NCBI GenBank assembly: GCA_964014485.1
Contig: CAXHAT010000242.1
Span: 1-10,488, forward strand
Source: an uncultured Deferribacteres bacterium
GTDB taxonomy: Bacteria; Zhuqueibacterota; Zhuqueibacteria; Zhuqueibacterales; Geothermadaptataceae
Reading direction: 5' to 3'
DNA: 10,488 nucleotides
A program made the translations under genes and the position numbers. Positions 98 through 10,488 of the stretch are shown here, piece after piece. The notes under the pieces are model-generated. The model did no database searches. It had not been told where the DNA came from and worked only from the letters and a program-made list of their open reading frames with translations. Every line of letters starts with the position of its first letter. Position 1 is the stretch's first letter.

Positions 98-1729
98 ATG
101 AATTATCTGGCGAAAAAAACGGCGACGGCGCTGGCTGGCGCTATTCTGCTTTCCGGCGCGTCCTGGACTTGGGCGCAAAACGATGAGTGCGCCAAAGCCG
201 AAAACGATATTAACGCGCTCAAATGCGCTTTTGGCGCTTCGCCGACCTTGCCGTCTCCGCTGACGCACGGGTTGCTGTATATTTCTGAATCCGACCTGTC
301 CGCCACCCCGCACGAAACATTTCTGTACCCCGACTCCTCGAATAAAATCCCGACGGCTCACCAGGCTGCCGGCGATTCAATTGCGCTGACCGTTGTTCCT
401 TTGAATATTGACGGCGAAGTTGATTTTGAGCTGGGAAGAATAAAGATCATCGCCGAAGGGATGTCGAATGCGCGCGATGAGTTCAACGCCTTTAGAACAT
501 TGTTTATTGAAAACAACATTGATCTGCGCGAAGAAGTGGAGTTCGTCAACTTGTCGGAAGGCGGCTGCGACTTGCTCTGCTGGGTCGACCGCGGCGTTGA
601 AGAAATCGATCGGCAGGTCCAAATCGCTTTTCTCAAACACTCAAACAACCGTCCGCAAAATCCCGACGGTTCGCCCAAAAGTTCAGCACCGCCTTTCTCA
701 AGTCGCGACGACAAGCGTTTCCCGAGCCATGCGCTGACAACGAAAGAAATGCTGAAAACAAGAATTCTTGACCTGAAAAGCCAGTACCCAAATCTAAAAA
801 TGGTTTTCCTAACCAGCCGCAGTTTTGGCGGTTGGAGCTGCGTGCCCGAAAACGGCAGCTATCGCGAGCCGGTCGGGTTTGAAGAAGGATTCTCGGTAAA
901 ATGGCTGATTGAAGATCAGATATCCGGGGCCGACGCGGAATTGCGTCTCGACGGCGATTCTCCAACGCCGTGGCTGGCATGGGGGCCGTATATTTGGAAT
1001 CCGGAAACGCCGGAAGATTATTTCAAAGGCGACGGCGTCCACCCGTGTGATTCCGGGACCGCTTATATTTCGAACCTGTGGTACGAAGCCCTGCTGGCCA
1101 ACACTGCGGCGCGTCCCTGGCTGCTCAAAAATCCGTTAACCCCGGTTGAGCTCGCGTCATTCACTGCCGAAGTGGTTGGTTTTGACGTGCATCTGCGCTG
1201 GACAACAGCTAGTGAAACCAACAATTTAGGTTTCGAAATCCAACGTCTGCGACTTGGCGTTGAAGCGGGTATGAATAGCTGGAAAATCGCAGGATTTGTG
1301 GAAGGGCGCGGAACGTCTTCTTCGCAATACGATTACCAGTTCCGCGATTTAAAGCTTGCTTCCGGCGAGTATGAGTACCGGTTGAAGCAAATCGATTTTG
1401 ACGGCGCGTTCGAATATTCCGCGAATTTGCACGTGGTTGTGTCCGGCCCAAGCCGATTCGAACTGCTGCAGAATTATCCAAATCCGTTTCGCAACCAGAC
1501 GGAAATCGTTTTTCGGCTTGAAACGGCAGAGACGGCCACGCTCGAAATTGTCAATCTGCTCGGACAGACCGTTCGAACATTTGACCTCAGACCGACGGTC
1601 GGCGAAGTGCAAAAAATCATTTGGAACGGGCTGGACGACGCAGGAACGCCGCTGCCGCCGGGTTTGTATTTTTACAGAATCGGAACCGGCGCCCGCGCGA
1701 TTTCGAACAAACTCATACTCACGCGATAG
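98..1729 (+). CDS. Secreted protein: SGNH/GDSL-like hydrolase domain, Ig-like domain and C-terminal T9SS type A sorting/FlgD-Ig domain (543 aa)
   Basis: Long ORF. ATG at 98 preferred over TTG at 80 because it gives a clean signal peptide MNYLAKK-TATALAGAILLSGASWTWA|Q. GMSN (458-469) and DGVHP (1031-1045) resemble SGNH blocks I and V. PVELASF (from 1142), WTTASETNNLGFEIQR and YRLKQIDFDG mark the Ig module. NYPNPF (from 1472) ... WNGLD..G..LPPGLYFYR marks the sorting domain. The hydrolase call is less certain than the C-terminal domain. Confidence 0.85.
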   Translation: MNYLAKKTATALAGAILLSGASWTWAQNDECAKAENDINALKCAFGASPTLPSPLTHGLLYISESDLSATPHETFLYPDSSNKIPTAHQAAGDSIALTVVPLNIDGEVDFELGRIKIIAEGMSNARDEFNAFRTLFIENNIDLREEVEFVNLSEGGCDLLCWVDRGVEEIDRQVQIAFLKHSNNRPQNPDGSPKSSAPPFSSRDDKRFPSHALTTKEMLKTRILDLKSQYPNLKMVFLTSRSFGGWSCVPENGSYREPVGFEEGFSVKWLIEDQISGADAELRLDGDSPTPWLAWGPYIWNPETPEDYFKGDGVHPCDSGTAYISNLWYEALLANTAARPWLLKNPLTPVELASFTAEVVGFDVHLRWTTASETNNLGFEIQRLRLGVEAGMNSWKIAGFVEGRGTSSSQYDYQFRDLKLASGEYEYRLKQIDFDGAFEYSANLHVVVSGPSRFELLQNYPNPFRNQTEIVFRLETAETATLEIVNLLGQTVRTFDLRPTVGEVQKIIWNGLDDAGTPLPPGLYFYRIGTGARAISNKLILTR

Positions 1730-1985: not shown

Positions 1986-3356
1986 ATGATGGCTGAACGG
2001 AAAAAGCTGCACAAGTTCGAACAGCTCGAGGAAATCAGAGATGGAGCAATGCTCACTCGGGTGCTGAAAAAATACCTCGATGCAAAATTGGACGACGGTT
2101 TAACGATTTCTCAAGCTGCGCTTTTGCATGTTGACGCCAAGCGCGGGAAAGCCTGCAAGTTGATGATCAAAGCGAAGATCACCGATGGAAAAGAAATCAT
2201 TGGCGAACAAAAATATTTTGGCGGGTTGATCACGAGCTCTAAATATTCGCCGGAAGAGTATTATTACAGCATAACACAACGCCACACAAATGTTGTCGAT
2301 CCGGCTTACGGCCCGCCGTCAATGTTTGTTCGTGAGTGGGGTTTGCTGCTTTGGGCCTATCCGAATGACCCTAATTTGCCGGGTCTGGGATTATTTGAAA
2401 ACCGCGAAACGCTTTTGGCGCGAATGACTGAGCGGCCTGAGGTTTTTGGTTTGCCGACCGATGGCTACAAGCCCGTTTCGGCGACTGTTAAACTGACGAA
2501 ATACGTTCCGGGAATGCGGTGCGGCGCTATCGTTGCCGTTGAAGGACAAAAAGATGGGGAGACGCTGCGACACGAGCTTTTCGGCAAGGCTTACAGCAAA
2601 GGCGGCGGGCGAGATGCGTATAAAATCATGCGCAGCATTTGGGATGAGAATATAGCGCAAAATGCAGGCTTGCGCGTGGTCGAACCCTTTGGCTTCGACG
2701 AAGAATACGGCGTTGTCTGGCAATCAGCCGTTGACGGAAAACCGCCGATAAAAAGCGCTTCGCGGTTGAAATGTCTGGACGAAATCGCACAGAAAATCGG
2801 TGAAAGTCTGGCGGCTTATCATGCTTTGGATATGCAGTTGCCGAAAACTATGCAAGCCGCAGAACTGCTCGAAGAAGTTGAGCAAGCTTGCAGTGCAATT
2901 GAAAAAACGTTCCCGGCTTATGCTGATCAAGTTGAGTCGCTGAGAAAAAAATTGCTTGAGAATCCGCCGATTGATTTTGAGAAAACGCCGATTCATATGT
3001 CGTTCAAACTAAGCCACATTCTCGAAGATGACAATGAAATGACGATCATCGATTTCGATGGTGCGCGCATGGGCGATCCGGCCTATGATCTCGGTCGGTT
3101 CAACGCGCAAATCTTGCGGTTGAAAGCCGAGAAAAAAACGTCGTCTGAGATGGCTAAGAAGACGATTACCCGCTTCATACAGGGATACAATGAAAAAGCG
3201 CGCAAGCCGATAGCGCCGGAACGAATCGCATGGTCTACGGCAAACCATCTGGTCGCCAGCCAGGCGTTCAAAACTGTAAAACGCAAGAAGGAGAAAGCTC
3301 TGGTAGGATTGCTTGCTTTAGCTGATGAAGCGCTGCACGAGCTTGCCGGCGAATAG
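1986..3356 (+). CDS. APH/choline kinase-like phosphotransferase family protein, paralog 1 (predicted pseudokinase, HMS motif)
   Basis: 456 aa. FGKAY supplies the beta3 Lys. PIHMSFKLSHIL...IIDFDGARMGDPAYDLGRF matches the APH C-lobe pattern HGDxxxxN...DF/W...GDPxxDL except at the catalytic Asp. Shares WAYPNDP and KYVP..RC motifs with paralogs 2 and 3. The start could be the second Met (1989). Confidence 0.85.
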   Translation: MMAERKKLHKFEQLEEIRDGAMLTRVLKKYLDAKLDDGLTISQAALLHVDAKRGKACKLMIKAKITDGKEIIGEQKYFGGLITSSKYSPEEYYYSITQRHTNVVDPAYGPPSMFVREWGLLLWAYPNDPNLPGLGLFENRETLLARMTERPEVFGLPTDGYKPVSATVKLTKYVPGMRCGAIVAVEGQKDGETLRHELFGKAYSKGGGRDAYKIMRSIWDENIAQNAGLRVVEPFGFDEEYGVVWQSAVDGKPPIKSASRLKCLDEIAQKIGESLAAYHALDMQLPKTMQAAELLEEVEQACSAIEKTFPAYADQVESLRKKLLENPPIDFEKTPIHMSFKLSHILEDDNEMTIIDFDGARMGDPAYDLGRFNAQILRLKAEKKTSSEMAKKTITRFIQGYNEKARKPIAPERIAWSTANHLVASQAFKTVKRKKEKALVGLLALADEALHELAGE

Positions 3357-3415
3357 GTTTTGGGGAGGAGCTGAGATTCAACATCGGCGAATTCATTGAC
3401 GCCGGTATTCAGAAA

Positions 3416-3441
3416 CAGGAAACGACAACAGGAATTGACAA
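3416..3441 (+). repeat. Imperfect 13-bp tandem duplication carrying two SD-like AGGA motifs
   Basis: CAGGAAACGACAA (3416-3428) and CAGGAATTGACAA (3429-3441), 11/13 identical, ending 1 nt before ATG 3443. Confidence 0.7.
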
Positions 3442-3442
3442 C

Positions 3443-4825
3443 ATGCCTCAAATGAAAACTTATCCCGCGGACGAGAAGCTGCCGCACGTCAATATCGCTG
3501 CGAGCACAGAAAAAATAAGAGAGGTCTTTGCTCAAAAAATACCGCATTTCACCACTGGGGACTGGCGCGTGTATGACGTCGCCATCAAGCAAATGCAGTA
3601 TCGCCCGGGGAAAAAATTCGAAGCGAATTATGTAATTCATTTTGAGAATACGAAGAACAATGAAAAGGGGCGCCAGTTCTATTCCACGCTGATGCTGCCG
3701 AAAAAGGCTGCGGCGCATAAATACCAAACGGAGCGGGAGCGCGATTATTTGCAGCCGCCCGTTGCTCCGGGCCTCTTTTTTCTTGAAGATGTTGATATGA
3801 TCATGTGGGGTTTTCCCAACGATCCGAAGATCAAAAATCTGCTCGACGTGCTTCTCCCGCAGCGGCTCCAGGAGAGATTCGAGCGTTTCCGTGAACAATT
3901 CGAAATTCCGGAAGGCGCGCAAATCAAAAAGGTCAAGACGAACATGGCGAAGTATGTGCCGCGTGATCGCTGTACCATGAGCCACAAAATCAAATATGAG
4001 TTGGCCGGTAAAAATCAAGAAATGACGATTTTTAGCAAAACGTACAGCGTAAAATTTTCCGGCGAACCGCTCTTCAATTTGCTAAGGCAACTCTGGGAAA
4101 GCGAAGTTTGCCAAAGCGGGAAAATGCTGATTCCCAAGCCATTGTTTTATGACAAGCAAACGAACACCACCTACATGAGCGCGCTTTCAGGCGAACATTA
4201 TAGCGATAAGCTTGAAGAAATCGATCTCCCGCAGGTAGCGGCGCAATGCGGCGCTGGCTTGACTGATTTACAGCAAACGGAACTTTCCGTTTTCGAACAA
4301 CGGTCTCTGCGCGGCGAGCTGCGCGAATATGATGAAGGCATGCAAGTCTTGATCAAGTATGACGAAACCCTGCAGCCGCGATTGCAAAATTTGCGGCAGA
4401 AGCTGTCGGAAAGTCTGGAAAACTTGCCGCAACTGGAGAAAACGCCCAACCACGGCGCATTTCGACTCACTCAACTCTTGGACGTAGACGGAACGCCCGG
4501 CCTGCTCGATTTTGACGGCTTTCTGCTCGCAGATCCGCTCGTAGACGTCGCCAGTTTTGTGACGCATCTTTTCTATCTCGTTGTTAAGGGAGAAATCGAT
4601 CTGGAAACTTGTGAAAAAGCGACCAAAGCCTTCTGCAGCGCCTATGCGGAAAAAGCCCCGTCCGGTCTGCCTGAAAACGCATTACGATGGCACGCTGTTG
4701 TCGCTCTCGTTGGCAAACAAGCAAAAAAATGCGTCCGGCTAGCAAAAGACGGGCAAGGGGATCGGATAGAACAAATGATTCATCGGGCGGAAGAGATTTT
4801 TGAAGGTAAACAGGCGCTTGTCTAA
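3443..4825 (+). CDS. APH/choline kinase-like phosphotransferase family protein, paralog 2 (predicted pseudokinase, HGA motif)
   Basis: 460 aa. FSKTY Lys; PNHGAFRLTQLL...LLDFDGFLLADPLVDVASF; WGFPNDP and KYVPRDRC shared motifs; AGGA RBS upstream. Confidence 0.85.
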   Translation: MPQMKTYPADEKLPHVNIAASTEKIREVFAQKIPHFTTGDWRVYDVAIKQMQYRPGKKFEANYVIHFENTKNNEKGRQFYSTLMLPKKAAAHKYQTERERDYLQPPVAPGLFFLEDVDMIMWGFPNDPKIKNLLDVLLPQRLQERFERFREQFEIPEGAQIKKVKTNMAKYVPRDRCTMSHKIKYELAGKNQEMTIFSKTYSVKFSGEPLFNLLRQLWESEVCQSGKMLIPKPLFYDKQTNTTYMSALSGEHYSDKLEEIDLPQVAAQCGAGLTDLQQTELSVFEQRSLRGELREYDEGMQVLIKYDETLQPRLQNLRQKLSESLENLPQLEKTPNHGAFRLTQLLDVDGTPGLLDFDGFLLADPLVDVASFVTHLFYLVVKGEIDLETCEKATKAFCSAYAEKAPSGLPENALRWHAVVALVGKQAKKCVRLAKDGQGDRIEQMIHRAEEIFEGKQALV

Positions 4826-4842
4826 AGAAAGATGAACAAGTT

Positions 4843-6651
4843 GTGAGCGGAATTTGCGGCGTTTATTGTCCTCAGCATCCGGAGTACGCCGGGATCGGCG
4901 TTCTAAAGAAAATGTTGAGCGCTTTTCACTATGAAGGCGATTCCGAACGCTTTTTCCATATTGAAGAAGCCGCCGGCGTTGCTTTTGGGCAATTCCTGAC
5001 TACGTCGTTGTACGAACGTTCATGCATTGCCGAGCAGAAATGGCACGCTGACGACCGCTTCATCATCAGCTTGGAAGGAGAAGTTTTTACAGAAAAAACA
5101 AACCCTTCGGATCGACGTCCCGCTACGGACGCGTTCTTGTGCGAACTAAAACAAGAACGTGAAAAAGCTCCCCTAGGTCATGACGGGAATTATCGCGCCG
5201 CGATTTGGGATGCAAAAGCAAAAACGCTGCGAATTCTTACGGACCCGTTAAGAAAAAGGCCGTTTTATTACGCCTGCATCGAAGATTTAGGGCTTTTTGT
5301 GTATGCTTCTGAGCTTAAAGCTCTGATGAAACACCCGCGACTGGCCAGGGTTATAAATCCCGAAGCGCTGACAGCCTTTTTATCATTTGGTCATGTGCCT
5401 GCGCCGCTGGCGATTTTTGAAAATGTTTTCAAACTACTCCCTGGTGAAACGATTACATTCAGCGCTGACAACAAATTGCGGAAACGCCGCTATTGGCGTA
5501 TTCCGGATTTTGTCGAAGATGAGAAAGATATCGAATGTCTTGCTCATGAGGTAAAGAGCGCGTTTCTCCAAATGATCGAAAAAAATATCGCTCACGACAA
5601 AAGGGCGGGGATTTATTTCAGCGCCGGATTTGATTCGGCGATGATAGCGGCGAGCTTCAAGATTTTGGGCTATGAATCTCCTAATGCTTTTACGGTAGGC
5701 ATTCACAGCGACCGAAAGCAAGGTTTGCTGATGGAAGATTGGGTCTGGTCGAAGCGGGTCGCCGGAAAAATGGGTTTGCGCTTGCATAAGATAGAACTCA
5801 CTCATGAACACAATCCTTTACGAGACCTCGGCAAGCTTTTGCGACAATTTGATGAGCCTTTATTTACGCCCCATATCGAGAGTCAATATGTTCTTGCCGA
5901 ACGCGCAAAAAATACAGGAGTAACGCAATGTTTTACCGGCGGAGCTTCCGGACCGCTCTTTGGCAGGCCGTCTCGCAGGAAGCGCGAAAAGCTTTTGGCG
6001 AAACTGGGCAAGGCTTTGAATGTCGAATCGTTCATCTTTGAGAATTTCGCGCGGTTTGCCAAGCCCAAAGTTCAAGGTCTTTTGACGACGACTGACCTTC
6101 CGGCTCCGCAAAAAGTTGGAACCCGAATTATTCGGGAGTGTCTCAGCGGCATACAAGCCGGGGACATTATGGATAAACTATACACAGCATTCACGTATAT
6201 GCTCGTCGCAGGGCGCAACACGGATTTTCAATCGCATTTTACAGCTTTGACCGGCGTTCGAATTCATCTCTCTTTCTACGACAAGGCGCTTTTGAATTTG
6301 GCAAACAAGATTCCGGGTCGTTTTAAAGGTCTTGAGTCTGATGAAATGGACAAGGCGGTATTGCACAAAGCGTTCGATCATTTGATCCCGGAAGAAGTTC
6401 TTCGGCGGCGCAAAATCGGCTACCCGGGATATTTTTGGCACAAGGAAATTGAGACGTTGCGAAAAAGATTCCTTTCAAAAGAGGCCGTTCAACGGGCGGG
6501 CCTGCTAAACGCTGGAACGATTGGGAAACTGCACCGGAAGCTTGAAATCGGAACAGACCGCGCTGCCAACAGCCTCATGCTTGGGCTGGTTTTCTTACAA
6601 GCTTGGCATGAGGTTCACGTTCAAGGAAACGAAAATATTCGATTGAATTAA
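4843..6651 (+). CDS. Asparagine synthetase B-like protein (degenerate class II GATase domain plus ATP pyrophosphatase/synthetase domain), probable amide ligase
   Basis: 602 aa with GTG start. N-terminus MSGICG (cf. MCGIxG), TDPLRKRPFYY (cf. RDxxGxKPLYY), ASELKAL, KLLPG, PP-loop SAGFDS (5620-5637, cf. SGGLDS), FDEP, LSFYD (cf. xPFLD), and K..L...IPEEVLRRRKIGYP (cf. LPxxxxxRxKxxF). Confidence 0.9.
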   Translation: MSGICGVYCPQHPEYAGIGVLKKMLSAFHYEGDSERFFHIEEAAGVAFGQFLTTSLYERSCIAEQKWHADDRFIISLEGEVFTEKTNPSDRRPATDAFLCELKQEREKAPLGHDGNYRAAIWDAKAKTLRILTDPLRKRPFYYACIEDLGLFVYASELKALMKHPRLARVINPEALTAFLSFGHVPAPLAIFENVFKLLPGETITFSADNKLRKRRYWRIPDFVEDEKDIECLAHEVKSAFLQMIEKNIAHDKRAGIYFSAGFDSAMIAASFKILGYESPNAFTVGIHSDRKQGLLMEDWVWSKRVAGKMGLRLHKIELTHEHNPLRDLGKLLRQFDEPLFTPHIESQYVLAERAKNTGVTQCFTGGASGPLFGRPSRRKREKLLAKLGKALNVESFIFENFARFAKPKVQGLLTTTDLPAPQKVGTRIIRECLSGIQAGDIMDKLYTAFTYMLVAGRNTDFQSHFTALTGVRIHLSFYDKALLNLANKIPGRFKGLESDEMDKAVLHKAFDHLIPEEVLRRRKIGYPGYFWHKEIETLRKRFLSKEAVQRAGLLNAGTIGKLHRKLEIGTDRAANSLMLGLVFLQAWHEVHVQGNENIRLN

Positions 6652-6699
6652 AGAAAATATTGGACCACGCATCACGCGAATCATCATTGGAATAACATC

Positions 6700-8085
6700 G
6701 TGCGAGATCCGAGATTGCCGTTTTTGGAAGAAGCGATTGACGCGGAAAAAGTTGCGGCAAAGTTTGCCGCTTCATTTCGCGAAACGCTGACTGAAAACGG
6801 TTTGAAAGTTAAAAAATGTGTTGTTGAGCGCGTCCAGCACAAGAAAGGCAAACGCTGCCGAATTTTGTACACGCTCTTTTTCCAAAATGAAAACGGCGAA
6901 GAAACGCGCCACTGGTTTCACGGCAAAATGGTGAAGCAAGGGCGCGGCGCCCAACATTTTGAAGCCGCCCTGCAAAAGCTTGGCGTTGTTGACGGCCTTT
7001 GGCCGGCGGTGAGTTTGTGGGAAGAATGGGACTTTGTGCTCTGGGCTTTCCCCTACGATCCGGATATGCCGGGCTTGAATATCCCCGCAATCCCGACGAC
7101 TGTCAAAAGCATCATTAGCGAAAATACCGCAAAATTTGATTTTGACGAGAATTGCGTTCCTGAAGACGTCAAAATCGACCAGGTCAAGTACATGCCCGCA
7201 AAACGTTGCGTATTGCGCTACAACGTGGTTTTTCGGAAAGGCGACGCTGCGCAAGACCTGACTTTCTACGGCAAAGTCTACCCCGACGGGACAAGCCGCT
7301 ACCACTACGAAGTGCTGAAAACGGTGTATCGTTCCGCCGGAAATATTTTGAATGTTCCCGCTCCAATTTTGCATTTGGACGATGCGAACACGATCTGGCA
7401 GCACGCCTGGCCAGGAGAGCCGCTGATTGACAAAATAAACGAGATTTCACACGACGAGATTTTTCCGCGACTTGGCGAAATAGCGGCTAAGTATCACAGA
7501 ACAAAATGCGCTGGTTTGCCGAAGCATTTCAACTTCAAAACGGTCATGTTCGCCGCGAAGGAAGACGCCAAGATGCTTGGCTGGATGGCCCCGCATTTTA
7601 AGCAACGACTTGATCAAATTTACGAAACGCTTGCGTCGCTGCAAGAGCGCGTCGCAATGCAAAAAATCCCCGCCTCGCCAATACACGGCGCGATGCGGAT
7701 CGAGCAGTTTGTAACACGCGACAATGAGTTCGCGCTGCTCGATCTCGACGCCGCTTCAATCGGGGACCCGCTGTTTGACGTCGTAGAGTTTATAACCTCG
7801 TTACAATATCTCGAATTCTTACGCGGCATGGAACGCGAAGCCTTGGCTTGCGCCGAGAACCTGTTTCTGGAAAGCTACAAAAAACATGCGCTCTGGGAAC
7901 TGGATGATTTGCGGATTGCCTGGTATGCTTGCGCCTTTTTTATGACCAAAATCTACGATACGGTCAAAAATCTGGAGCAAAATTCTCTGCCGAATTTGGA
8001 CAAAGCGTTTGACGTTCTGGAGCAATGGCATGTTAAGCTTTTGCACGAAAGAGCGGCTTTAGCGCCGGAAAGCATGGTCGCCTAA
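6700..8085 (+). CDS. APH/choline kinase-like phosphotransferase family protein, paralog 3 (predicted pseudokinase, HGA motif)
   Basis: 461 aa with GTG start and GGA upstream. YGKVY Lys; PIHGAMRIEQFV...LLDLDAASIGDPLFDVVEF; WAFPYDP and KYMPAKRC shared motifs. Confidence 0.85.
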   Translation: MRDPRLPFLEEAIDAEKVAAKFAASFRETLTENGLKVKKCVVERVQHKKGKRCRILYTLFFQNENGEETRHWFHGKMVKQGRGAQHFEAALQKLGVVDGLWPAVSLWEEWDFVLWAFPYDPDMPGLNIPAIPTTVKSIISENTAKFDFDENCVPEDVKIDQVKYMPAKRCVLRYNVVFRKGDAAQDLTFYGKVYPDGTSRYHYEVLKTVYRSAGNILNVPAPILHLDDANTIWQHAWPGEPLIDKINEISHDEIFPRLGEIAAKYHRTKCAGLPKHFNFKTVMFAAKEDAKMLGWMAPHFKQRLDQIYETLASLQERVAMQKIPASPIHGAMRIEQFVTRDNEFALLDLDAASIGDPLFDVVEFITSLQYLEFLRGMEREALACAENLFLESYKKHALWELDDLRIAWYACAFFMTKIYDTVKNLEQNSLPNLDKAFDVLEQWHVKLLHERAALAPESMVA

Positions 8086-8131
8086 ACCGGCCTGTTCCGT
8101 TAAGATTTAAGCATTTTTTGAAGGAATTGGT

Positions 8132-8644
8132 TTGAAAGACAAAACAAAAGACGGCAAGAAAAAAGAGCGCGCGCTGGAAAAGTTTCCAATGATAAGATCA
8201 TTCCTGGAATACAGCAATTCGCTCAAAGATAAAACCGGAGTCGTTACGCCTGTTCAGCGTGAGATGATTTACACGGTCGTTTCGCGCCAAAACGGATGCG
8301 TTTTTTGCACCATCGGCCACGGGCGAAAACTCTTCGAATTAACGGGAGACAAAAAACTTTACGAAGACGTGGTCAAGGACTTTCGGCAAGCGGAAATTGA
8401 CCCTGGCGACATGTTAATGCTCGAATACGCGACAAGATTGAACCGGAAACCGGAAACGCTCAAGCGTGAACAACTGGCGCCCTTGCACGAAGCGGGTTTC
8501 TCCCAAGAAGCGATTCTGGAAATCATCACCCACGCGGCGGTGATGTCCGCTCAAAATCGGATTCGAACCGGCCTCGGTTACCAAATTTCTCCGGGAATGC
8601 AAAGGGAAGCAGAACGTTTGGGCTTATCTGAGAGCTCGATCTGA
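8132..8644 (+). CDS. AhpD/carboxymuconolactone decarboxylase family, peroxidase-related protein, paralog 1
   Basis: 170 aa with TTG start and AAGGA RBS at 8121-8125. QREMIYTVVSRQNGCVFCTIGH is the AhpD core E-x..CxxC-x3-H (Cys codons at 8297 and 8306). C-terminal L.EAGFS.E.I.EI......NR...LG is typical of the family. Confidence 0.88.
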   Translation: MKDKTKDGKKKERALEKFPMIRSFLEYSNSLKDKTGVVTPVQREMIYTVVSRQNGCVFCTIGHGRKLFELTGDKKLYEDVVKDFRQAEIDPGDMLMLEYATRLNRKPETLKREQLAPLHEAGFSQEAILEIITHAAVMSAQNRIRTGLGYQISPGMQREAERLGLSESSI

Positions 8645-8702
8645 GCAAAAATAGCCAAATTCGATGTTGGTAAAACAGTGTAGCACGATTGTGGTGATGG
8701 GA

Positions 8703-9215
8703 ATGAACACGAAGACGAAACGTAAGAAGGGACCGCTTGAAAAATATCCGGCGATTCGTGCATTTATGAAGTACAGCAACTCGATCAAATGGGAGCTTGA
8801 CGATTTGCCCCAGCTTCAGCGAGAAATGATTTATACGATCGTTTCCAAGCAAAACGGTTGTTTGTATTGCACAATTGGTCATGGCCGAAAGATTTTCGAG
8901 TTATCCGGCGACAAAAAATTATACGAGGACATTGTTAGAGATTTCCGCCAAGCCGAACTCGAAGATAGCGACAGGGCGATGCTTGAATTTGTAACCCTTT
9001 TAAATGAAAACCCTCAAGAGATCAACGTTGGGAAGCTCTTGGCGCTCAAGGAATGGGGGTTTTCAGAAGAAGCTGTGATCGAAATTTTGACCCATAGTTC
9101 AGTAATGACTGCACAGAACAGATTTCGGATGGGTCTCGGATTTGAGCTCACGCCCGGAATGCGCCGGGAAGCTTCGCGCTTGGGCCTTTGTACAAATTCC
9201 GGAACGCACGAATGA
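8703..9215 (+). CDS. AhpD/carboxymuconolactone decarboxylase family, peroxidase-related protein, paralog 2
   Basis: QREMIYTIVSKQNGCLYCTIGH motif. ATG 8703 chosen over 8664 and 8697 because GGTGA lies 5 nt upstream and it gives 170 aa, the same length as paralog 1. By hand count about 60% identical to paralog 1 (91/151, ungapped). Confidence 0.88.
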   Translation: MNTKTKRKKGPLEKYPAIRAFMKYSNSIKWELDDLPQLQREMIYTIVSKQNGCLYCTIGHGRKIFELSGDKKLYEDIVRDFRQAELEDSDRAMLEFVTLLNENPQEINVGKLLALKEWGFSEEAVIEILTHSSVMTAQNRFRMGLGFELTPGMRREASRLGLCTNSGTHE

Positions 9216-10327
9216 AAATCGCCTTTATTCGCACAAAAGTGCAAAGCACGGTTTTTCTCGACGAACCGAACGGCAGGCCAAGCGGCGAAGCGTTGGACGC
9301 AGCGACTTTGGAGAAGATGAAAATTACCGCAAAAGCGGGAAGCAGCTCCAAAAACGTCATGTTCGGGCTGGAAAAATACGGTCTGGTAGAATGCTTTGAA
9401 GAGTGGAAGTTTTGGGCGGGAGAATTTACGGAAACGCAATCGCCGGACGGTTTTCCGGTAAAAATTTTCCCTACAGACGCAGCGATGCGGTCGGAGTATC
9501 TCAAAAAGTACATTGCTGAAAACGGCCAGCCGGATATTCTTTGGATCGAAGGCCAGTCCTATCCGCCGTACATCGACCAGATTTTTTCTCTCTGCCCGGA
9601 AAGCTTCAAGATGCTCTATTCAAAAGACTGGGAGCCTTGGAAGGTTGAGCAGGTCGGATTGTACGATCTTGTGATGGTGGATGAGGAAATTCAAGCGCAA
9701 CGCATTCAGAAAAAGCACCCGAATGTTTATTGCGGCTTGTGGAATAAGTTTATCGACCACGAGAGCACCCATTTCCCGCTCGACGTTGAAAAAAAATACG
9801 ACGTCTGCTACGTTGCTTATCTGCGCGTAAGAAAGAATCATGAATTGCTTTTGAAAGCGGCGGCGAAACTGCCGGATCGCAATCTCAATATTGTCTGCCT
9901 CGGAGAAGATCGGAAAAACTACCGCGCCAAGCTCGAGAAAATGGTGGATGATCTAGGTCTTGACGTCACGTTTGTCGGCGAAGTCGGCAAGGGAGAGGTC
10001 AACCAATACATCAATCAATCGCGCATGGGCGTCATGACTTCGGTTTTGGATGCGGTGCCGCGTGCGACGCTCGAATACATGGCGGCGGATGTTCCGGTTT
10101 TGGTAAATGCGCACTTGCGCGCCGGTACGCGTTATGTCGGTGAGCAAGGCGGTCTCGTTAAAGCGCCGGAAGAATTTCACCGCGGCATTGAAGAGATTCT
10201 GGACAATCCCGAACGCTTTTCCCCGCGCGCGTTTTTTATGGAAAATTTCTCATTCGAAAAAAACATGGCCGTCGTGATCGATATTTTTAAGAAAGCGGGA
10301 CTGCCGCTCTTGGTGAATGGTAATTAG
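9212..10327 (+). CDS. Glycosyltransferase family 4 (GT-B, group 1) protein
   Basis: ATG 9212 overlaps the upstream stop (ATGA). MKIAFI N-terminal strand. C-terminal domain YVAYLRVRKNHELLL...FVGEV...SVLDAVPRATLEYMAADVPVLV matches the GT4 signature S..E.FP...LEAMA.G.PVV. 371 aa. Confidence 0.9.
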   Translation: MKIAFIRTKVQSTVFLDEPNGRPSGEALDAATLEKMKITAKAGSSSKNVMFGLEKYGLVECFEEWKFWAGEFTETQSPDGFPVKIFPTDAAMRSEYLKKYIAENGQPDILWIEGQSYPPYIDQIFSLCPESFKMLYSKDWEPWKVEQVGLYDLVMVDEEIQAQRIQKKHPNVYCGLWNKFIDHESTHFPLDVEKKYDVCYVAYLRVRKNHELLLKAAAKLPDRNLNIVCLGEDRKNYRAKLEKMVDDLGLDVTFVGEVGKGEVNQYINQSRMGVMTSVLDAVPRATLEYMAADVPVLVNAHLRAGTRYVGEQGGLVKAPEEFHRGIEEILDNPERFSPRAFFMENFSFEKNMAVVIDIFKKAGLPLLVNGN

Positions 10328-10373
10328 TAAGCAGTAAGCAGTAAGCAGTAAGCAGTAAACTGTGACCTGAAAC
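10326..10373. repeat. Heptamer array (AGTAAGC)x4, AGTAAAC, TGTGACC, TGAAAC; reverse-oriented arm of the downstream array family
   Basis: Read directly. Reverse complements GCTTACT, GTTTACT and GGTCACA fit, or differ by one base from, the GYTYACW consensus shared with GTTTACA and GCTCACA. Confidence 0.9.
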
Positions 10374-10440
10374 AAAGAGTCTCCTTACAGTTTACAGTTT
10401 ACAGTTTACAGTTTACAGTTTACAGTTTACAGTTTACAGC
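10326..10440 (+). terminator. Long imperfect stem-loop formed by the inverted heptamer arrays; possible terminator or mRNA 3' stabiliser
   Basis: AGUAAGC pairs with GUUUACA at 6/7 positions (one G.U). GTAAACTGTGA (10355-10365) pairs fully with TTACAGTTTAC using one wobble. It starts at the GT4 stop codon. There is no classic U-tract. Confidence 0.4.
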
Positions 10441-10488
10441 TCACAGCTCACAGCTCACAGCTCACAGCTCACAGCTCACAGCTCACAG
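10385..10488. repeat. Compound heptamer tandem repeat (TTACAGT)x7, TTACAGC, (TCACAGC)x6 plus TCACAG, truncated at the window edge
   Basis: Read directly from the sequence. Confidence 0.99.

Follow-up and report, generated by a model that had tools for sequence, protein, structure and literature searches.

Seven co-oriented open reading frames (ORFs) span positions 1986 to 10327 on the forward strand of contig CAXHAT010000242.1 from an uncultured Deferribacteres bacterium. The contig stretch was analysed over its full length of 10,488 nucleotides (nt) and is referred to here as the window. The locus raises the question whether three kinase-fold proteins, an AsnB-like protein, two AhpD-like proteins and a glycosyltransferase (GT), encoded in such close succession, form one pathway. 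Comparison with related loci suggests that they do not, and that the seven genes are instead composed of a conserved four-gene core, namely the three kinase-fold genes (K1, K2 and K3) and the GT4 gene, and of three lineage-specific inserts. In the reading that we prefer, and for which we regard the case as evenly balanced, the window represents the distal half of a cluster whose genes tailor and export a glycosylated and phosphorylated product and in which kinase-fold proteins lacking the catalytic Asp act as non-phosphorylating binding subunits and the AsnB-like and AhpD-like genes are inserts. The seven genes are the following:

1986..3356, + strand: K1, kinase-fold protein of about 456 amino acids (aa) with maltokinase-like architecture (Pfam APH, E 1.2e-14)
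3443..4825, + strand: K2, 460-aa paralog of K1 (Pfam APH, E 8.7e-10)
4843..6651, + strand: AsnB-like protein, 602 aa, located between K2 and K3 (Pfam Asn_synthase, E 3.9e-28)
6700..8085, + strand: K3, 461-aa paralog (Pfam APH, E 3.6e-7)
8132..8644, + strand: AhpD-like protein A, located between K3 and the GT (TIGR01926, 107.3 bits)
8703..9215, + strand: AhpD-like protein B, tandem paralog of A (TIGR01926, 102 bits)
9212..10327, + strand: GT4 glycosyltransferase (Pfam Glycos_transf_1, PF00534, E 1.2e-20)

The co-orientation and the gaps of 86, 17, 48, 46, 58 and -4 nt, as given in a preliminary description made from the letters of this DNA, were borne out by the ORF positions. The last two gaps hinge on the starts at 8703 and 9212, of which the former is backed by the alignment of the AhpD-like paralogs and the latter by the alignment of GT4 homologs; the genes for AhpD-like protein B and GT4 overlap by 4 nt.

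Kinase-fold proteins without the catalytic aspartate

With scores of 55.1, 39.2 and 30.6 bits, K1, K2 and K3 exceed the gathering cut-off (23.2 bits) of the Pfam family APH (PF01636) and belong to it by this measure. The three proteins are paralogs with mutual identities of 23-24% (24% for K2 versus K1). In place of the expected HGDxxxxN, their catalytic loops read HMSFKLSH (K1), HGAFRLTQ (K2) and HGAMRIEQ (K3), so that the position of the catalytic Asp is taken by Ser in K1 and by Ala in K2 and K3, which confirms that the catalytic residue is missing from the three kinase-fold proteins, as stated in the preliminary description. Other parts of the active site are retained. The DFD/DLD metal site and the GDP...D segment are invariant among K1-K3, and K201, the β3 Lys of the ATP site, as well as D356/D358 (K1 numbering) are invariant both in these three proteins and in all orthogroups considered below.

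A search with a K1-family profile, using one genome per species, yielded 58 loci. Of these, 23 (L001-L023) with identities of 32-38% were found to be true relatives, and all counts given here are based on them. They originate from KSB1, Calditrichia, metagenome-assembled genomes labelled Cytophagia, Myxococcales, Eisenbacteria, Rokubacteria, Verrucomicrobiia and Methylomirabilota. The remaining 35 loci (L024-L058), all from Curtobacterium and 23-33% identical, were dropped; the four of them that were examined contained a distant APH kinase and no cluster. An alignment of 74 kinase-fold ORFs from the window and the 23 related loci, with the window proteins included in the counts, revealed that the loop residue is characteristic of each orthogroup. 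It is Ser in all 21 K1 proteins and Ala in K3 (12/12), Asp is absent from K2 (9/9, with Ala in its place), and a fourth orthogroup, K4, carries Ser, Thr or Ala and never Asp (6/6). Two smaller kinases of the same clusters, sKa and sKb, retain the Asp (12/12 and 14/14, respectively), and the β3 Lys and DFD/DLD are kept throughout sKa, sKb and K1-K4. Among the 21 aligned K1-family proteins, the complete motif H-x-S-F-K-x-S-H is invariant together with IDFD and GDP. Since the replacement is fixed per orthogroup across the related loci, the loss of the Asp does not reflect decay within a single genome. K2 orthologs were identified in nine loci (more than 150 bits with K2 as best hit), and K3 is 30-43% identical to ten orthologs. 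In the phylogeny, for which a quick maximum-likelihood tree was calculated, the branch parting Asp-bearing from Asp-less proteins obtained a Shimodaira-Hasegawa-like approximate likelihood ratio test (SH-aLRT) value of 100, and each K protein of the window nested on a long branch within its own orthogroup (K1 within the K1 clade, SH-aLRT 99; K3 within a clade of K3 and K4, SH-aLRT 100).

In the wider protein family, the K1 profile matched 7575 representative clusters at E<=1e-3, 4591 at 1e-10 and 937 at 1e-30. A residue census of 158 aligned domains, taken from the best 149 representatives and K1, found 81 domains with the Asp (mostly HGDLHLKN) and 77 without it, the latter carrying Ser (40), Ala (24), Thr (9), Glu (3) or Asn (1), while the DxD motif was present in 151 and the Lys in 144 domains. 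The closest relative of K1 is the metagenomic protein P0002 with an identity of 41%. The Asp-bearing sister group scores above the cut-off of no NCBIfam model, and the kinase-fold trio and GT4 likewise stay below the cut-offs of all curated NCBIfam families.

The AlphaFold2 (AF2) model of K1 (mean predicted local distance difference test score, pLDDT, 89.2) matches APH-fold structures in Foldseek with a probability of 1.00, its top match being the full-length maltokinase 4u94 (E 4.8e-11). The likeness to the mycobacterial maltokinase Mak/Pep2 (4u94, 4o7o) extends over 484 aligned columns at a template modeling (TM) score of 0.50 and includes the length of about 450 aa and an N-terminal extension ahead of the kinase lobes. 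The two differ in that the identity amounts to 12% and that K1-K3 have neither a TIGR02457 match nor the catalytic Asp, for which reasons membership in the maltokinases was rejected. The TreS/GlgE context is missing as well, with no gene of either kind found in the window or the scanned loci.

Also among the top 14 Foldseek matches of K1 were LxmKY (9dk2) and the complex of TvaE and its leader peptide (8jsu). TvaE is reported to be an inactive phosphotransferase homolog that binds the leader peptide of the substrate and a partner enzyme (10.1101/2020.08.21.260521). The K proteins share with TvaE and LxmX an APH fold without kinase active-site residues and the location beside genes of active APH-fold kinases, and in these respects they fit this type of protein. 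8jsu is even a top-five match of K1 (TM 0.64 by target). On the other hand, TvaE has only about 310 aa and lacks the N-terminal part of about 200 aa seen in K1. Further differences concern the gene context: in the cluster described here a precursor peptide, a lyase and a LanD flavoprotein are missing, three to four inactive paralogs are present instead of one, and K1 is fused to the ABC exporter in some lineages. The K proteins are likewise not members of the LxmK family, as K1-K3 score 39.8, 31.8 and 32.8 bits against the model NF038156 with a cut-off of 315.

Conserved cluster and lineage-specific genes

Gene content was determined by phmmer searches with the proteins of the window and of the cluster in L003 against all ORFs of the 23 loci. 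The cluster runs on one strand in the order MurG-like GT, GT4a, sKa, DUF5666 (one or two copies), sKb, ABC1, ABC2, K1, K2, K3, window-type GT4 and K4. The window covers only part of the system, since the related clusters additionally encode DUF5666 proteins, two kinases with the Asp, two further GTs and a pair of MsbA-like exporter half-transporters of the ATP-binding cassette (ABC) type. Further Asp-less paralogs adjoin K1 in 17 of the 23 loci, and L014 additionally shows a K-K fusion. ABC1 and/or ABC2 are located directly upstream in 16/23 loci, sKb is present in 15/23 and DUF5666 is strongly matched in 9/23. The window-type GT4 was detected in seven loci (375-482 bits), and in seven other loci a GT4x-GT4y pair comes after the K genes instead. 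Among the loci with missing features, L015, L017, L018 and L023 end at a contig edge. None of the conserved cluster proteins attains the cut-off of any NCBIfam model. For ABC1 and ABC2 the best matches were MsbA_rel and MsbA (439 and 425 bits, under the cut-offs of 780 and 602, respectively), and the first GT of the cluster is MurG/MGT-like, with a MurG-like GT28 C-terminal domain.

The most conserved protein of the module is GT4. It is a member of PF00534 (74.2 bits versus a cut-off of 26.4), as had been noted before, and is 48-58% identical to the six orthologs in alignment A6, from which the seventh ortholog (L001) was omitted on account of a masked stretch. D280 and E288, which we take to be part of an E-x7-E-type motif, are invariant in seven orthologs. 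GT4 orthologs come after K3 in L001, L003, L006, L009, L013 and L016.

Several genes of the cluster occur as fusions. ABC2 is fused to K1 in L019 (3129-6380, 1083 aa), in L020 (8090-11320, 1076 aa) and in the database representative P0170, each fusion ORF carrying the domains ABC_membrane and ABC_tran and, at its C-terminus, a kinase-fold (APH) domain without the Asp. This arrangement argues that K1 works at the exporter. Together with the fusion of GT4a to sKa in L004, it also argues for a single substrate that is both glycosylated and phosphorylated.

More than 1.5 kb of DNA past the GT is available in five of the seven loci with the window-type GT4. In four of these five, genes of the non-ribosomal peptide synthetase (NRPS) or polyketide synthase (PKS) type follow. 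L003 passes through K4 and a metallophosphatase with CBM96 and a sorting signal of the type IX secretion system (T9SS) before genes for an MbtH-like protein and a type II thioesterase are reached, L009 leads into a PKS, and L013 and L016 both run on into MbtH, thioesterase, sulfotransferase and NRPS genes. These four loci are in keeping with the small glycosylated metabolite that the preliminary description had offered as one option. T9SS-tailed or homologous secreted hydrolases flank or interrupt the cluster in L001, L003, L004 and L009. They are phosphatases in the first three, where L001 ends within a phosphatase gene as in L003 and L004 encodes a secreted phytase, and a T9SS esterase between ABC1 and ABC2 in L009. 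The presence of secreted phosphatases and esterases beside the cluster suggests extracellular trimming of the product after its export.

Sulfotransferase genes were seen in or beside the clusters of L005 (17505-20354), L013 (10218-10961), L016 (17050-17781) and L018 (4300-5109). In L005 the sulfotransferase is accompanied by genes for ATP sulfurylase and adenosine 5'-phosphosulfate (APS) kinase, which belong to the synthesis of 3'-phosphoadenosine 5'-phosphosulfate (PAPS). This hints at a product that is sulfated in some lineages.

Regarding the DUF5666 proteins, they were found in L003 (3825-4334 and 4471-4935) and, as orthologs, in eight further loci, always between the two canonical kinases. 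They have about 154-190 aa, are cytoplasmic and highly conserved, and many of them end in ...TEIEGF. The AF2 model (pLDDT 92.9) is a β-barrel for which Foldseek retrieved no match in the PDB at E<=0.001, the best ones being the small barrels PilY2 and CusF. A literature search on DUF5666 gave nothing relevant among the titles and opening lines of abstracts that it listed.

Solo homologs of K1, which retain the loop as HGSFKFSH and have no cluster around them, are encoded in L002 (9959-11326) and L007 (821-2188). Each of them is convergent with a gene resembling β-mannosidases of glycoside hydrolase family 2 (GH2).

Homologs of the AsnB-like and AhpD-like proteins were not found in any of the 23 related loci (phmmer, E<=1e-4). 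Where K2 and K3 abut or overlap, as in L001, L003 and L006, GT4 follows K3. In the window, precisely these junctions are occupied, that of K2 and K3 by the AsnB-like gene and that of K3 and the GT by both AhpD-like genes. The lack of these three genes in the relatives and their junction positions imply that the seven genes comprise a core of four conserved genes, to which three others were added by insertion in this lineage. The preliminary description had taken all seven as one candidate undescribed system whose homologs should co-occur elsewhere. The kinase-fold trio with GT4 does recur and is apparently undescribed, so that this part holds, whereas the AsnB-like gene and the two AhpD-like genes accompany it in none of the 23 loci and the seven genes are not one unit. 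For these three genes, this is the outcome that the preliminary description had itself named as refuting its proposal.

The AsnB-like protein has the two-domain architecture known from 1ct9, 7ylz and the lasso cyclases, and its residues 237-590 match PF00733 with 99.6 bits (cut-off 21). Its best PDB match is the hydroxyamidotransferase 7ylz (E 1.1e-14). It remains under every NCBIfam cut-off, including those of TIGR01536 (153 bits versus 267.1), of the lasso cyclase model NF033535 (80.2 versus 525, with no partner genes found) and of the amidotransferase of the PEP-CTERM/XrtA exopolysaccharide, TIGR03108 (135.1 versus 816.9), and it belongs to neither of the latter two families. From other AsnB proteins it differs at several catalytic motifs (glutamine-site Arg and Asn, PP-loop, E348, D351 and E352). 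The glutamine-site Arg (RRLSIID) and Asn (NGEIYN) are lost, since the aligned segments read GQFLTTS and LEGEVF and place Phe/Leu and Glu at these positions. The PP-loop is SAGFDS instead of SGGxDS. TGGASGP aligns to SGEGSDE of 1ct9, which turns E348, D351 and E352 of Escherichia coli AsnB into Gly, Gly and Pro. The other eight aligned AsnB homologs retain SGGxDS, and seven of the eight retain the acidic residues. Judged by these positions, both domains of the protein may lack catalytic activity.

The N-terminus deserves separate mention. The ORF starts with GTG at 4843 and yields MSGICG, with Ser as residue 2 and Cys at position 5 and not 2. The Cys could become exposed through an N-terminal propeptide or through a start at the ATT codon at 4852, which immediately precedes the Cys codon. 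MSGICG is also found in P0031, the sole fairly close relative, and its sharing suggests that the Cys may matter. A database prediction of the protein, P0030, comprises 579 aa (96% of the query) and is shorter than the 602-aa ORF; its start probably lies downstream of the Cys. A protein that is glutaminase-dead, as had been put forward before, is therefore plausible on account of the lost Arg and Asn positions, and not by way of the implied residue, as a Cys is present in MSGICG. P0031, which is metagenomic, is also the nearest relative, with 25% full-length identity; all remaining matches in 5.8 billion clusters amount to at most 120 bits. By sequence, the AsnB-like protein is an orphan lineage.

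The two AhpD-like proteins belong to TIGR01926 ("peroxidase-related enzyme"), exceeding its cut-off of 81.8 bits, and match CMD/AhpD as well. The CxxC...H motif is intact in both (GCVFCTIGH and GCLYCTIGH), in agreement with the assignment made previously. The two share 58% identity along 161 residues, which characterizes the pair as a tandem duplicate. For A, the best PDB match is the AhpD structure 6k40 (E 8e-23), and a word-based search found no relative besides the protein itself.

Proposed function and rival explanations

According to the preferred reading, an acceptor that is lipid-like or derived from a peptide or polyketide (NRPS/PKS) would be glycosylated by the GTs in the cytoplasm and phosphorylated there by the two canonical kinases sKa and sKb, with sulfation in some lineages, after which the ABC pair would export the modified product. 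The Asp-less paralogs would not phosphorylate; they would bind nucleotide and/or the intermediate, hold the latter for GT4 and pass it to the exporter in a manner similar to TvaE. The AsnB-like protein and the two CxxC-containing AhpD-like proteins would be lineage-specific accessories. A more far-reaching version, which has to be regarded as speculative and rather unlikely, supposes that K1-K4 are pseudokinases of a new class that serve MsbA-type ABC exporters as adaptors in the cytoplasm. Such adaptors would recognise the phospho-glycosylated cargo from the neighbouring kinases and GTs and couple the last glycosylation to export, with K1 docking on the nucleotide-binding domain; in some phyla K1 is indeed fused to a protein with an ABC nucleotide-binding domain.

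Several observations weigh against the preferred reading. No ABC, NRPS or PKS gene was seen in the window itself. Adjacency to NRPS/PKS genes is confined to four loci, and variant loci are followed by genes for a histidine kinase and a response regulator and not by NRPS/PKS genes. The invariance of the K1 loop (H-x-S-F-K-x-S-H) is no less compatible with a remodelled active site than with a passive adaptor, and the combination of MsbA-like exporters, GT28-like and GT4 enzymes and sulfotransferases fits an envelope glycolipid equally well. Finally, the conclusion on the inserts is drawn from one genome per species, and the closest relatives of the window proteins are metagenomic.

The envelope glycolipid is the main rival explanation and is close to the decoration of a glycan or glycolipid proposed in the preliminary description. 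In this case, the GT28-like and GT4 enzymes would equip a membrane lipid with a glycolipid head group, decoration would fall to kinases and sulfotransferases, and the MsbA-like ABC pair would flip the glycolipid to the outer leaflet. We consider this possible but not probable. It would account for the closeness of ABC1 and ABC2 to MsbA_rel and MsbA (although under the cut-offs), for the MurG-like GT28 C-terminal domain, for the sulfotransferases of L005, L013, L016 and L018 including PAPS synthesis in L005, for the CBM96-bearing secreted phosphatases that adjoin the cluster, and for the GH2 mannosidase-like gene beside the solo K1 of L002 and L007. However, Pfam scans of L003, L009 and L004 detected no polyprenyl-phosphate glycosyltransferase, Wzx/Wzy, sugar-nucleotide or lipid-synthesis gene in the cluster. 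Moreover, the same-strand run into MbtH, thioesterase, NRPS or PKS genes in four loci points elsewhere, and four Asp-less kinase paralogs would be left without a role.

A different explanation concerns the Asp-less proteins themselves, which might be active enzymes with a remodelled site, either non-canonical transferases that use ATP, for instance of an adenylylating or ligase type, or kinases with another base. Non-canonical use of ATP had been one option of the preliminary description. Kinase-fold enzymes with non-kinase chemistry exist, for example SelO and SidJ. The invariance of the replacements within the orthogroups (HxSFKxSH in K1, HGAxRxEQ in K3) and the retention of the β3 Lys and the DFD Asp (Lys in 144 and DxD in 151 of the 158 domains) would be expected of such enzymes. 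Nevertheless, the replacement differs between the orthogroups (Ser/Lys/His, Ala/Arg/Gln, Thr/Lys/Gln), which is hard to square with one new chemistry, and TvaE, the nearest precedent in fold, is reported to lack phosphotransferase activity (10.1101/2020.08.21.260521). This makes remodelled enzymes appear improbable. The probability is lower still for a pathway of ribosomally synthesized and post-translationally modified peptides (RiPPs) resembling those of class V lanthipeptides or thioamitides, in which active kinases and inactive kinase homologs would be combined with GTs and ABC export and the AsnB-like protein would be a lasso-type or other amide-forming cyclase. All kinase-fold proteins do match LxmK weakly (31-40 bits), Foldseek retrieves TvaE and LxmK, and the AsnB-like protein has an 80-bit match to the lasso cyclase model. 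These scores are far under the cut-offs of 315 (LxmK) and 525 (lasso cyclase), though, and Pfam scans of the window and the scanned loci yielded no HopA1-like lyase, LanD-type flavoprotein, RiPP recognition element (RRE)/PqqD, B-protease or C39 peptidase domain. Nor did a candidate for the precursor emerge, with intergenic gaps being mostly below 150 nt, and the AsnB-like gene is absent from the related loci, so that a RiPP pathway is very improbable.

It appears just as doubtful that all seven genes are a unit in which the AsnB-like ligase joins an amine via an amide bond to a GT4-made glycoconjugate. The tight co-oriented spacing with the 4-nt overlap of AhpD-like gene and GT4 gene would speak for it, as would the even guanine plus cytosine (GC) content across the AsnB-like and AhpD-like genes and the intergenic gaps without a terminator-like site on the + strand, the scan for which was itself not beyond chance. 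Against it stand the absence of the AsnB-like and AhpD-like genes from all 23 related loci, the orphan status of the AsnB-like protein and the alteration or loss of its acidic residues, PP-loop and glutaminase Arg and Asn. For the same reasons (E348, D351 and E352 missing, a variant PP-loop and no relative above 25% full-length identity), the amide-linked non-ammonia amine of the preliminary description is not upheld.

Two known systems offer further comparison. In antibiotic self-protection, products are modified, exported and reactivated, as in the case of oleandomycin (OleI/OleB/OleR) or of streptomycin, with a kinase and an extracellular phosphatase. Likewise, the cluster described here combines GTs, among them a MGT/MurG-like one, APH-type kinases and ABC exporters with adjacent secreted hydrolases, possibly including G0 (see below). 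The self-protection systems differ from the cluster in having no known Asp-less kinase paralogs, and the link to the hydrolases is here one of adjacency. In the cotSA-cotS genes of the Bacillus spore coat, a GT4 gene adjoins APH-fold paralogs of the CotS family, some of which are reported to lack catalytic residues. Here, the cluster proteins reach about 20 bits with the CotS model TIGR02906 (cut-off 172.7), the organisms are by lineage not spore formers, and the ABC, GT28 and DUF5666 context is not known from Bacillus. A role in anti-phage defence was also checked and rejected, as 14 proteins (seven each from the window and L003) had no PADLOC match at E<=1e-3 and the matches to the Pfam families TCAD9 and GT4-conflict fall under the cut-offs.

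Targeted literature searches found no description of the cluster or of its Asp-less paralogs. In the KSB1 passages of PMC7472256, PKS and terpene clusters are mentioned and the terms phosphotransferase and glycosyltransferase do not appear. The components of the cluster are all members of superfamilies already known. If the preferred reading is correct, the large family of kinase-fold proteins of about 460 aa would hold repeatedly retained, catalytically remodelled paralogs that work with GTs and ABC exporters. The idea of pseudokinases as adaptors, known from few RiPP pathways, would then extend to the export of glycoconjugates or natural products and reach into the little-studied phyla KSB1, Calditrichota, Eisenbacteria, Rokubacteria and Methylomirabilota, in which candidate hybrid NRPS/PKS clusters are flagged for product discovery. 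For annotation, the locus advises caution, since co-oriented neighbours need not be one pathway: three of the seven genes are idiosyncratic here.

Window edges and the upstream gene

The window is bounded by heptamer repeats. It starts (1-54) with 7.7 copies of TCACAGC and ends with 7.6 copies of ACAGCTC, which are one and the same repeat unit. Within positions 10326-10488, AGTAAGC (4.7 copies) and TTACAGT (7.9 copies) precede the terminal ACAGCTC array, so that tandem repeats close the window 160 nt past GT4. As the edge lies in such repeats, nothing beyond GT4 is visible. Comparable arrays were not found in 22 of the 23 related loci by an exact-repeat scan. The window may be a segment bounded by repeats, or the assembly may have broken at dispersed arrays of heptamers. 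A megablast search of the window against a plasmid collection gave no match, Rfam and tRNA scans returned nothing, and promoter and terminator scans did not exceed the expectation from shuffled sequences.

Upstream of K1, one further gene was found:

98..1729, + strand: G0, secreted protein with a T9SS C-terminal sorting domain (TIGR04183, 38.3 bits versus a cut-off of 23)

The N-terminal part of G0 (about 450 aa) has no sequence match in Pfam or the PDB. A feature match in Atlas points to GDSL esterases with a score of 0.92, and the assignment as SGNH/GDSL esterase is taken only as a lead. G0 is possibly associated with the cluster.

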